DNA of 4,828 bases from a virus. Lineage: Duplodnaviria; Heunggongvirae; Uroviricota; Caudoviricetes. Positions 2-2,069 of the stretch are shown piece by piece; the stretch's first letter is position 1; every line of letters starts with the position of its first letter. Location: the IMG/VR virus record IMGVR_UViG_2541047125_000007. One strand, given 5' to 3'. Made by a program: the position numbers and the translations under genes. Below the pieces are notes generated by a model, which made no database searches, had not been told where the DNA came from, and worked only from the letters and a program-made list of their open reading frames with translations.

Positions 2-53
2 ATTGATGTCACGACGGAAGATTTAGCAAGTGCGCTTGATGTGACGGAAGACG
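2..53. repeat. Two direct iteron-like repeats (TTGATGTCACGACGGAAGA and TTGATGTGACGGAAGACG)
   Basis: Copy 1 is at about 3-21 and copy 2 at about 36-53, differing by a 3-nt indel and one substitution. Both contain the GTCAC/GTGAC core seen in the downstream iterons and encode a repeated DVT(T)ED peptide in the initiator. Confidence 0.4.
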
Positions 54-865
54 TAATTGATTCAATTTTGCATGCAATGCAGGGGCGGGTTCTGGATGGT
101 GACCTTATTTCCGGATGGGAAAAACGTCAGGTGCTGAAAGAGGACAATGGTAATGTTTCGCAAACCGCAAAATCCCCGGCAGAGCGCAAGAGAGCGCAGC
201 GGGAGCGGGAAAGACTGCGGAAGCAGAACACTGATTGTCACGATGAGTCACGACGCGTCACGCATATGTCACGACAAGTCACGACAGATACAGATACAGA
301 TAAAGAATTAAACCCCACACATAACGCGCGCATGCGCGAGAGTGCTCCGACCAGTGAGTCGAATGGCGCGCCGTTGCAGACAGCCGAACCTGAATACCTG
401 GACGGCCTGAGCGAACCGATCGGGAAATTTCCGATGACTGGTGTCTGGCAGCCGTCGCCGGATTTTCGACAGCGGGCAGCAGTGTGGGGTATGGCTCTGC
501 CTGAGCCTGAGTTTACACCTGCTGAGCTTGCCGCATTCCGGGATTACTGGATGGCGGAGGGGAAGGTTTTCACGCAGGTTCAGTGGGAGCAGAAATTTGC
601 CCGTCACGTGCAGCACGTCAGGGCACAGGTAAAACCAGTCAGCAAGGGGGGAAGCCATGCAGCATCAGGTGGCACGGCATCACGGGCAGTTCAGGAAATC
701 CGGGCTGCACGCGAACAGTGGGAACGTGACAACGGATTTATCAGCAACGGAAACGGCCTGGAAGCTGTGGGAGCTCATGGGGGAGGTGTATTCGAACCGC
801 TGGACTCAGAAGAACGGGGCCGCACCTTCGAAGCTCTGGATTGCCCAGATTGGTGCGATGACTGA
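2..865 (+). CDS. Phage replication initiator, 5'-partial, with a DnaT-like C-terminal domain
   Basis: The frame is open from window position 2 with no upstream stop, so the true start lies left of the window (the ORF track's GTG at 41 is internal). Stop is TGA at 863-865. Residues from about nt 410-630 (PIGKFPMTGVWQPSPDF...FTPAELAAFRDYWMAEGKVFTQVQWEQKFARHVQ) closely match my recollection of the C-terminal ssDNA-binding domain of E. coli primosomal protein DnaT. A basic linker (AERKRAQRERERLRKQ) is followed by the iteron-encoded segment, as in lambda O-type initiators with an internal ori. Confidence 0.8.
   Translation: MDVTTEDLASALDVTEDVIDSILHAMQGRVLDGDLISGWEKRQVLKEDNGNVSQTAKSPAERKRAQRERERLRKQNTDCHDESRRVTHMSRQVTTDTDTDKELNPTHNARMRESAPTSESNGAPLQTAEPEYLDGLSEPIGKFPMTGVWQPSPDFRQRAAVWGMALPEPEFTPAELAAFRDYWMAEGKVFTQVQWEQKFARHVQHVRAQVKPVSKGGSHAASGGTASRAVQEIRAAREQWERDNGFISNGNGLEAVGAHGGGVFEPLDSEERGRTFEALDCPDWCDD
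233..340. repeat. Putative replication origin: five helically phased TCACGAC-type iterons, an AT-rich tract, then a 12-bp GC palindrome
   Basis: TCACG cores start at 238, 248, 258, 269 and 279 (spacing 10, 10, 11, 10 bp). They are followed by (GATACA)-like repeats and the AT-rich stretch agatacagatacagataaagaattaaa (about 285-311), then the perfect palindrome CGCGCATGCGCG at 327-338. This is the same order of elements as ori-lambda, which lies inside the O gene. Confidence 0.6.
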
Positions 866-1319
866 ACAGCAAATCCGTCTGGTGTGCCGTCAGTGCATGG
901 ACCGCTGCCGGGCGGGTGAAACGTGGCCCCCGGACCTGGCTGAGTTTGTTGCGCTGATTTCGGAGAGTGGGGCAAATCCATTTGGTCTTACGGTGGATGC
1001 CGTGATGGAAGAGTACCGGCGCTGGCGCAATGAATCCTGGCGATACGACGGGAGTGATAAATACCCGTGGCCACAGCCTGTGCTGTACCACATCTGCCTC
1101 GAAATGCGTACCAGAGGGATTGAGCGCCAGATGACGCAAGGTGAGTTAAAACGACTTGCAGAACGGCAACTGACGAAATGGGCAAAGCAAGTTGGTAACG
1201 GGATGAGTATTCCCCCGATCCGGAGACAACTCGCATCGCCGAAGTGCCCGCAAGGGCCAACGCCAATTGAATTACTGAAACAGGAATACGAGCGCCGGAA
1301 GGCGGCTGGTTTTGTTTGA
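657..1319 (+). CDS. P: Lambda P-like replication protein (DnaB helicase loader family)
   Basis: The C-terminal two thirds align by eye with lambda P (WPPDLAEFVAL ~ FLPSPGQFVAW; YPW; GELKRLAERQL ~ AELRRKAADEL; IPPIRRQL ~ IPEPVKQL). ATG at 657 is preceded by a strong SD (AAGGGGGGAAG at 644-654), and the frame opens just after a TAA at 630-632. Stop is TGA at 1317-1319. Alternative starts are ATG 777 (GGGAG SD) or ATG 858; the N-terminal similarity to lambda P seems to extend upstream of 858, favouring 657 or 777. Confidence 0.75.
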   Translation: MQHQVARHHGQFRKSGLHANSGNVTTDLSATETAWKLWELMGEVYSNRWTQKNGAAPSKLWIAQIGAMTEQQIRLVCRQCMDRCRAGETWPPDLAEFVALISESGANPFGLTVDAVMEEYRRWRNESWRYDGSDKYPWPQPVLYHICLEMRTRGIERQMTQGELKRLAERQLTKWAKQVGNGMSIPPIRRQLASPKCPQGPTPIELLKQEYERRKAAGFV

Positions 1320-1352
1320 ATCTGAGAAACGATTTTGTCGGAGGAAATTTTA

Positions 1353-2069
1353 ATGGAAACCGTATCTGACGCACTGAAAGCACTGAAAAAAGCCTCTTCA
1401 CATGTGGTGGCAGCTCGCCTTGGAATCAGTCGTGAAGAGGCTGTCAACGAACTGTGGAAACTGAAACGCCGTGGAGAAGCGGATAACAAGGGGGCGATAT
1501 GGTGGCTGACTCAGGCTGGTGAAAGTGAACCGGTGTCACCGGTACCGAAAGTGACGGCGCAAATGCTGACAGAGGCGATTGAACAACATGGCCCACAAAC
1601 GGCGGATGAACTGGCATTGATGTTCGGAATTACCTCCCGCCGGGCGAATTCATCGCTGGCAATGGCAATCAGCAAAGGGTGTCTGATTCGCGTGAATCAG
1701 GATGGTAAATTTCGTTACTGCATACCGGGCGTTGATTTACCGGCAGAGCCGAAAGCAGCATCCGTAGCTGAAACGGAGGGTAAAGCCCTTCCTCAGCCAG
1801 CTGGTGTTGCGTTACCAGTCCAGGAAACGGCTGCACAGGAAGAAATTAAAACAGAAGCGGTGGAGGACATTGTGAAGTTGCAGCAATCGTTCACTGAAGC
1901 GAAAGCAGATGACCTGATTCTACCATCGCTGCATGTGGCTAACCGCGAGCTGCGCCGGGCGAAAAGTAATGTTCAGAAGTGGGAGCGAGTCTGTGCTGCG
2001 CTACGGGAACTGAACAAACACAGGGATATTCTCCGGGATATTACCGCCACCAGAGAGCAGCAGCGGTGA
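1353..2069 (+). CDS. Hypothetical protein with two winged-helix-like segments and a C-terminal coiled-coil-like region
   Basis: ATG at 1353 with SD GGAGGAA at 1340-1346 (the ORF track's 1335 start is a TTG in the same frame). Stop is TGA at 2067-2069. The segments [38 protein letters not shown] and [43 protein letters not shown] look like tandem wHTH units; the charged, heptad-like C-terminus suggests oligomerisation. It may belong to a DUF-type phage family, but I cannot confirm this from memory. Confidence 0.7.

Follow-up and report, generated by a model that had tools for sequence, protein, structure and literature searches.

Long same-strand overlaps, in which one stretch of DNA is overprinted with two reading frames, are known in phages and viruses, including genes of phiX174 and the lambda Rz/Rz1 pair, and in such pairs the structured segment of one product is often reported to overlie a disordered segment of its partner. 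Where prokaryotic annotation shows a long co-directional overlap, an error is usually to blame, and a survey of 338 prokaryotic genomes that considered 968 overlaps above 60 bp found no real co-directional case (PMC2478687). In phage lambda, the helicase loader P adopts a four-part architecture on DnaB: domain I (residues 1-29) forms an N-terminal lasso that is believed to lack order in solution, domain II (residues ~30-119) holds the loader ensemble together, and domains III and IV follow, the whole ending with a C-terminal lasso helix (PMC12661323). Deletion of lambda P residues 9-86 abolishes its replication function (PMC3640518). Here we analyzed a 4,828-nucleotide (nt) stretch of viral DNA, IMG/VR record IMGVR_UViG_2541047125_000007 (hereafter the window), which contains an Escherichia coli prophage replication module of Rac-like or lambdoid type, and in which the 3′ part of a replication initiator gene and a P-like helicase-loader gene (hereafter P) occupy the same bases in different frames. 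Comparative sequence analysis points to a genuine, ancient same-strand overlap of two replication genes, with dual coding and a P protein of 220 amino acids (aa) beginning at position 657, a reading to which we assign a probability of roughly 0.8.

The module resembles lambda O-P in gene order, in the origin-like iterons inside the initiator gene, and in the loader itself, which belongs to Pfam Phage_lambda_P, matches lambda P by profile and fold, and in its 220-aa form would share the lambda layout including a disordered N-terminus of ~29 aa. It differs in that the lambda genes overlap by only 4 nt (ATGA; O at 38686-39585, P at 39582-40283), whereas the overlap spans 209 nt in the window and 149-227 nt across the family, and in that the window initiator is of the DnaT-domain type rather than lambda-O-like and carries an extra C-terminal helix and tail within P. 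No similarity was found between the lambda O C-terminus and this tail. The nearest precedent is O′, a read-through form of lambda O that ends in the N-terminal coding region of P (PMC3640518, citing Yates et al. 1977); like the window initiator, it is a longer initiator with an extra C-terminus taken from the 5′ part of P in a non-P frame. O′ arises by UGA read-through as a minor product, whereas here no stop intervenes and every initiator molecule carries the tail. The frames also differ, as lambda O codon position 1 falls on P position 2 (with next in-frame stops 36 or 63 codons downstream), and the tail of O′ is basic, with no sequence relationship to this one. In the genome survey, holD-rimI, its longest confirmed co-directional case, is likewise supported by conservation across Enterobacteria and not by annotation alone, but spans 32-56 bp (PMC2478687). 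The locus shares with phiX174 and Rz/Rz1 overprinting the use of two frames from one DNA stretch, with structured over disordered segments; unlike those cases, it is a terminal overlap of two old, widespread genes rather than a new gene inside an old one, and for both partners there are homologs whose corresponding parts are encoded outside any long overlap, as is the N-terminus of lambda P. Literature searches for earlier accounts of a long O/P overlap found none, and although overlapping genes as a kind are known, this long variant appears to be undescribed so far.

A reading of the window from its letters alone (the sequence-only reading) had drawn attention to an out-of-frame overlap of about 200 nt, and its layout was largely confirmed (Table 1). 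The P-like frame opens at 633, after a TAA at 630-632, and contains in-frame ATGs at 657, 777 and 858; the initiator frame indeed stays open to 865, its stop TGA occupying 863-865; the overlap from ATG657 measures 209 nt; and the 4-nt figure cited for lambda was correct. Only the GGGGGG (G6) run, placed at 645-650, was off by one nucleotide and actually lies at 646-651. Throughout the overlap, initiator codon position 1 coincides with P codon position 3. Peptide stretches encoded there include MQHQVAR, SGLHANSGNVTTDLSATETAWK and LWELMGEVYSNR in the P frame, and AVQEIR, DNGFISNGNGLEAVGAHGGGVFEPLDSEER and TFEALDCPDWCDD at the initiator C-terminus. Because the initiator open reading frame (ORF) has no stop before 863, its product must carry the C-terminal ~70 aa encoded at 657-862. 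The strong Shine-Dalgarno (SD) sequence claimed for ATG657 was also borne out: the G6 run ends 5 nt before the ATG, which is good SD spacing, and its duplex with the 16S rRNA 3′ end is worth -11.0 kcal/mol, compared to a background of -2.8 ± 2.6 kcal/mol in which only 3% of positions reach -8.

The overlap recurs far beyond the window. We gathered nine loci from annotated E. coli or phage records and 37 more from one genome per species; in 43 of these 46, the P-frame homology contains the end of an upstream ORF, which is 101-381 aa long (all the extracted ORFs but one reach ~300 aa or more). The overlaps span 149-227 nt and are always 2 mod 3, so that the relative frame is constant, and the host genera range from Escherichia to Yersinia, Serratia, Erwinia and Rouxiella. 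IMG/VR viral contigs with a P only 41-42% identical have the same arrangement, with overlaps of 197-227 nt. The presence of the same overlap and relative frame in 43 loci and in distant viral contigs excludes a lesion in the window sequence and supports the genuine dual coding that the sequence-only reading had listed among its options; as to whether orthologous initiators normally stop near 650-700, they end 149-227 nt inside the P frame. A true overlap had further been expected to show conserved residues in both frames together with an intact G6, and of these the long overlap and the conserved residues were found, whereas the run itself is altered by substitutions. The exceptions comprise two Erwinia loci with P remnants beside chromosomal genes (L034 and L044), one locus with in-frame stops (L046), and one in which P was matched only from residue 70 onward (L042). 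Among complete E. coli genomes, 1816 of 5426 match the region, 658 of them with a match covering at least 80% of the query, and a prophage of the O157:H7 strain 493/89 is 96% identical to the window.

The two Erwinia remnants are lone, intact-looking P-like ORFs that keep the P ATG (L034, 2926-3552, 208 aa; L044, 2974-3543, 189 aa) and adjoin a ttcA-like gene and a phosphotransferase-system transporter gene, respectively, the initiator being gone. We considered them as non-overlapping controls and rejected them, because the initiator is deleted and only remnants of the P gene are left. Separately, the record PP818812.1, named 'Actinobacillus phage vB_Apl-pPE4' (L048), shares 87.5% DNA identity with the window module over 79% of the query, so close a match that its attribution to Actinobacillus pleuropneumoniae looks doubtful, or the transfer very recent.

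Conservation of the start site was examined in 19 lineages sharing less than 80% aa identity. In all 19, an ATG lies 39-50 codons upstream of an invariant tryptophan of P (W49), with a GGAGG-like SD 5-10 nt upstream of it (mean -8.8 kcal/mol). The initiator residue read across this ATG is His, Asn, Tyr or Asp, always written as an NAT codon followed by a codon starting with G (19/19; the background for T-ending codons of these residues elsewhere is 0.42-0.57), and the SD is written in Gly-Gly, Gly-Glu, Arg-Glu and similar pairs of initiator residues. Since NAT-G and GGAG are kept while the initiator residues vary, what is conserved is the nucleotides and not the initiator amino acids. Five lineages have no other in-frame ATG, GTG or TTG between the 657-equivalent start and the first P helix. 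Most E. coli relatives carry T for G in the run, which produces an in-frame TAA, such that the P frame opens one codon before ATG657. RNA folding of 610-700 revealed no unusual structure around the start site (z = +0.83).

Codon-position variability revealed which frame is constrained along the overlap. In 25 loci with at least 60% P identity, diversity at positions 0/1/2 mod 3 was 0.21/0.49/0.23 in the initiator-only stretch (446-632) and 0.23/0.39/0.28 over 657-745, the same initiator phase in weaker form; it became 0.14/0.10/0.36 over 746-862, which is the P phase of the P-only stretch (866-1090; 0.13/0.11/0.46). The switch thus falls at ~nt 745. Aligned protein sequences behave in parallel, with 31% identity in the initiator frame and 24% in the P frame over 657-745, and 50% in the P frame and 32% in the initiator frame from 746 onward. 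Across the 19 lineages, P phase is already evident in the ten codons that precede Met41 (0.46/0.40/0.56), the initiator third position being least variable there. The P motif AW.LWE.M.EIYSNRW..KNG..PS..W is conserved across helices 1-2, and within residues 36-66, M41, I44, R48, W49, K52, N53, G54, P57 and W61 are near-invariant. On these comparisons, selection is clear on the initiator at 657-745 and on P at 746-862, and the evidence for it is weak for the subordinate frame in each half.

By profile and predicted fold, the downstream gene is a lambda P-type helicase loader. Its product scored 58.7 bits against Pfam PF06992 Phage_lambda_P (cut-off 26), with residues 58-187 aligned to profile positions 31-161 of 162, so that the match begins upstream of Met68, and a profile of 30 homologs matched the lambda P chains 8v9t and 8v9s in PDB (E = 1.7e-6 and 2.7e-6). 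In alignments with distant homologs (25-40% identity), the match starts at query residues 20-37 and falls on internal positions of the homologs, indicating that the segment upstream of both annotated starts belongs to the family domain. An AlphaFold2 (AF2) model of the 220-aa protein, with a mean predicted local distance difference test (pLDDT) score of 69, has no secondary structure at residues 1-29 (pLDDT <50 at 1-23 and 25-28) and helices at 30-53, 59-66, 70-85, 94-106, 113-129, 141-157, 161-180 and 203-216; its top Foldseek matches are the lambda P chains of the DnaB-P complexes in 9oa1 (194-213 aligned columns, probability 1.0). The model reproduces, at moderate confidence, the four-part layout of disordered N-terminus, helical domains and C-terminal helix. 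Residue 30, where the first helix begins, is encoded at nt 744, the point at which the phase flips.

We next turn to the initiator. A model of its last 146 residues (nt 425-862; mean pLDDT 65) comprises, in order, the DnaT domain, a linker, a helix and a disordered tail. The helix motif, ES.A.QQ(I/V)R.AR..WE, recurs in the 19 lineages with different initiator families. Openness was assessed by fixing the amino acids of one protein, randomizing its synonymous codons and scoring the other frame. Over P codons -16 to +9, counted from W49, the initiator frame is open in 19 of 19 lineages (P = 0.16-0.53 each), with a joint probability of 10^-9.4 that is approximate given that the lineages are mutually related; it is open in only 2-6 of 19 in control windows located deeper within P, as expected. 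Counted from the first base of the W49 codon, the initiator stop comes 28 to 100 nt downstream, never earlier. Two sites point to selection on the initiator frame, the codon used by P being in each case one that yields Glu there: 16 of 19 lineages write Lys52 as AAG (background 0.32, p = 4e-6), and 6 of 8 write Ser46 as TCG (background 0.16, p = 3.5e-4). Part of the apparent tail motif is a shadow of P: a shift of one base turns KNG of P into EE(R/W), where the use of AAC or AAT determines whether R or W appears. When same-residue pairs were scored for use of the same codon, z was 4.5 in the overlap and 2.4-9.5 in controls, which shows no extra synonymous constraint overall. We conclude from these sequence comparisons that the initiator tail is probably required as an open, acidic extension whose exact sequence is weakly constrained. 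Given the two models, the ordered part of each protein is predicted to overlie the disordered part of the other.

In the mechanism that we propose, ribosomes would start P independently at 657 while others still translate the initiator, yielding a 220-aa loader with the four-part layout of lambda P. Constraint is divided between the two frames, with the initiator helix lying over P residues 1-29 (657 to ~745) and the first two P helices over the initiator tail (~746-862). Both translation from 657 and a function for the tail are what we infer from sequence conservation.

Table 1. Coordinates of the initiator/P overlap and its parts in the window (4,828 nt).
Feature	Coordinates	Strand	Remarks
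Replication initiator (replisome organiser, 'O') gene, 3′ part	2..865	+	frame open from nt 2; TGA 863-865; 5′ end outside the window
DnaT domain of initiator (Pfam PF17948)	428..628	+	E = 9.5e-18, 64.1 bits against a cut-off of 25; AF2 pLDDT 77-89
Gly-rich linker of initiator, predicted disordered	629..679	+	holds SD and ATG of P; pLDDT <50 at model residues 71-85, non-helical at 69-85
G6 run, best read as SD site for ATG657	646..651	+	duplex -11.0 kcal/mol
P-like helicase-loader gene, proposed full extent (220 aa)	657..1319	+	Pfam PF06992, profile and Foldseek matches; conserved ATG and SD
Proposed dual-coding segment, 209 nt: initiator C-terminal ~68 aa and P N-terminal ~69 aa	657..865	+	
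P residues 1-29, predicted disordered leader	657..743	+	counterpart of lambda P domain I; initiator frame dominant
Conserved initiator helix ASRAVQEIRAAREQWER	680..730	+	AF2 helix, model residues 86-102
Initiator C-terminal tail, predicted disordered, acidic/Gly-rich	731..862	+	pLDDT <50; open, weakly constrained
P helices 1-2 (residues 30-66), start of domain II equivalent	744..854	+	P frame dominant
ATG of Met41	777..779	+	start of the 180-aa form called in other genera; probably a Met internal to helix 1
ATG of Met68	858..860	+	RefSeq/GenBank start of P in E. coli (153 aa); ATGACTGA, 8-nt overlap with initiator stop

Existing annotation places the start of P elsewhere. P starts at the 858 equivalent, giving a 153-aa protein, in each of the eight RefSeq records examined and in two of three annotated GenBank phage records, and the third GenBank record starts it still later (140 aa); the initiator carries the RefSeq name 'DnaT-like ssDNA-binding domain-containing protein' and, in the locus L001, is 345 aa long and ends at the 865 equivalent. 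In protein databases, the P family falls into length classes of ~216-223 aa (657 equivalent), ~180 aa (777 equivalent) and 153 aa. The long ORF is thus called in some database proteins, and the middle class (180-181 aa) has the start that the Prokaryotic Genome Annotation Pipeline (PGAP) uses in Salmonella, Citrobacter, Klebsiella and Pectobacterium. At its N-terminus, P is probably truncated in the reference annotation, and the 153-aa and 180-aa forms would be truncations produced by gene callers that penalize long overlaps. Starting P too late, such annotations would hide the overlap.

Were the annotated model right, P would begin at ATG858, coupled to the initiator stop through ATGACTGA, and the P frame at 657-857 would be an untranslated chance ORF, an outcome that the sequence-only reading had also contemplated. 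This start has the RefSeq and GenBank records described above in its favor, its overlap with the stop codon is typical of translational coupling, and the upstream open frame is within chance when the window is taken alone (P = 0.36 given the initiator amino acids). Conservation nevertheless speaks against the model. Only 11 of 19 lineages have ATG at the Met68 codon (the others encode Leu, Phe or Cys there), its SD is weak (mean -4.7 kcal/mol), and a test of termination-reinitiation coupling gave a negative result, in that ATGACTGA is present at 858-865 here, yet Met68 is that poorly kept and the initiator stop position is variable. Moreover, P-phase variability and strong P-frame conservation begin ~110 nt upstream of 858, and the Pfam and distant-homolog alignments extend upstream of Met68. 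A P of 153 aa would be missing the counterpart of domain I along with two helices of the domain II counterpart, and in lambda P the deletion of residues 9-86 abolishes function (PMC3640518). We therefore regard a start at 858 as very improbable. A start at ATG777 (Met41, 180 aa, 89-nt overlap), with ATG657 unused or minor, is less easily dismissed but still unlikely: Met41 is encoded by ATG in 18 of 19 lineages, an SD-like GGGAG lies upstream (mean -5.4 kcal/mol), and many NCBI proteins of 180-181 aa begin there. That GGGAG, however, corresponds to the Trp-Glu codons of the conserved LWE motif, has a 3-nt spacer and is absent in several lineages, and L027 and L030 have CTG in place of the ATG. 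The conserved AW.LW residues and the P-phase variability extend upstream of Met41, predicted helix 1 (30-53) would be cut in half, and ATG657 with its strong SD is universal among the 19 lineages.

A third rival explanation takes the overlap for a lesion or programmed event at the G6 run: a frameshift or sequencing error would have extended the initiator, or slippage would produce an initiator-P fusion. The run does lie 5 nt before ATG657, and the database proteins P0173, P0154 and P0130 join initiator-frame and P-frame sequence. An extension of the initiator by frameshift is at odds with the same overlap and frame in all 43 loci and in distant viral contigs. As for slippage, in 12 Escherichia sequences (the window and 11 loci, a small sample of the 658 genomes with a match of at least 80% of the query), the variants GGGGGG, GGGGGT, AGGGGT and G7 reflect substitution only at constant length, so the length of the run, whose variation the sequence-only reading had proposed to check, did not vary there, and other genera have GGAGGT, GGGAGG, AGGAG and others at the site, with no run. 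The tract is thus not conserved as a run, and we found neither a conserved slippery sequence nor, in the 12 Escherichia sequences, a run-length polymorphism. G5T variants acquire a TAA in the P frame directly behind the run, and since most E. coli relatives carry this TAA ahead of ATG657, ribosomes that shifted at the run would stop immediately. Joined initiator/P proteins (P0173, P0154, P0130, P0162 and P0098) were rejected as evidence of slippage, being frameshift-ridden or deletion variants: they change frame at places other than the run, do so repeatedly, or are fusions made by deletion, as is typical of low-quality assemblies. We consider an event at the run the least probable of these explanations, and the G6 is best read, from its sequence and position, as the SD site of the P gene written in initiator Gly codons. 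As an observation in its own right, P0098 and P0162 (E. coli and Salmonella-like records) are in-frame deletion fusions in which the DnaT region is joined to the middle or end of P, and appear from their sequences to be decayed replication modules.

Several points weigh against a 220-aa P and a functional initiator tail. Every annotated RefSeq or GenBank record examined starts P at 858 or later, and the openness of the second frame in the window alone has the chance explanation given above. Although all 43 loci have an open P frame along the entire overlap (P = 0.04-0.6 each), its openness at 657-745 is uninformative as evidence of translation (P = 0.12-1.0 given the initiator amino acids), and P residues 1-29 show little sequence constraint, being less conserved (24% identity) than the initiator frame over them (31%). 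Identity of the initiator tail exceeded a synonymous-shuffle null (0.337 compared to 0.283), but non-coding control frames gave a similar excess. The relatedness of the 19 lineages bears on all joint probabilities, the two AF2 models are moderate in confidence, and the conservation of Met41 together with its weak SD-like sequence may reflect a second, shorter P isoform.

The overlap is also linked to the exchange of initiators among modules. Initiators found before this P have DnaT alone, DnaT with DUF1376 or HTH_36, Phage_rep_O, HTH_36/DnaD_N, DUF1376 without DnaT, or no Pfam match, and all of these classes, which represent at least five Pfam-distinct architectures, end in the same helix and tail. 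Between classes, similarity often begins between 4-8 residues before and ~10 residues after the P ATG. BLASTP mapping of these joints was noisy because low-identity high-scoring segment pairs cross low-complexity linkers, and we used only the cleaner pairs (L025/L026, L025/L028, L025/L045, L035/L043 and L045/window). From these sequence joints, the mobile unit appears to consist of the P SD, the ATG and the rest of P, together with the C-terminal ~50-70 residues of the initiator in the other frame. Searching for homologs of the initiator C-terminus yielded, for the most part, incomplete E. coli proteins, and one DnaT-type protein, P0314, has a different, short tail. Separately, in the initiators of L026 and L045, the segment before the shared tail (RTNILCPSKLREKWDTLTAKF) resembles the C-terminal region of lambda O (GNVLSPAKLRDKWTQLEINR; L072, lambda, 87-986); judging from this resemblance, a lambda-O-like C-terminal domain can precede the extra tail.

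Other features of the window accompany the module. Iteron-like direct repeats, (T/A)GTCACGAC, occur in five or six copies at a phase of ~10-11 nt at 236-285, and also at 8-13 and 603-608; lying inside the initiator ORF, they probably mark the replication origin, placed as in lambda. Downstream of P lie genes for a DUF1627 protein (1353-2069), a small helix-turn-helix or sigma-70 region-4-like protein (2069-2383) and a DUF4406 protein (2380-2682), which abut or overlap their neighbors by a few bases in the normal manner, in contrast to the 209-nt overlap upstream. Long antisense ORFs are present opposite the P gene (199 aa, 890-1489, minus strand) and the initiator gene (116 aa, 308-658, minus strand), and in this G+C-rich module their presence means that ORF length alone says little. 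At the 3′ edge, which cuts it, the Rfam sok antitoxin RNA (RF01794; 4726-4828, plus strand) scored 61.3 bits against a gathering score of 59, a match that suggests a hok/sok-type toxin-antitoxin locus.

If P is translated from 657, annotated loaders are short by at least 67 residues in Escherichia-type records and by the first 40 in PGAP calls in other genera, and these short forms would have no counterpart of the N-terminal lasso of lambda P and would lack part of the ensemble-holding domain; any homology model, expression construct or functional prediction based on them would be in error. An overlap of this length conserved across many genera is a rare, well-supported exception among co-directional overlaps and a useful test case for gene callers, and the helix of one protein over the disorder of the other would offer a clear natural example of how two old genes can overlap. 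More tentatively, and with the balance of our judgment against it, the overlap might act as a physical lock on a protein-protein interface, in which the initiator helix and tail recruit the P-DnaB complex through the P lasso and the first helices of domain II. With the tail and the start of the loader written in the same 150-230 bases, recombination in mosaic prophages could not part them, and any origin-binding domain recombining upstream of the P SD would gain the matching P-docking tail. Such a lock would explain how at least five unrelated initiator architectures come to share one tail, why homology often starts at the P start, and why the tail is open yet loosely constrained. The link between the overlap and module exchange among initiators is directly testable.

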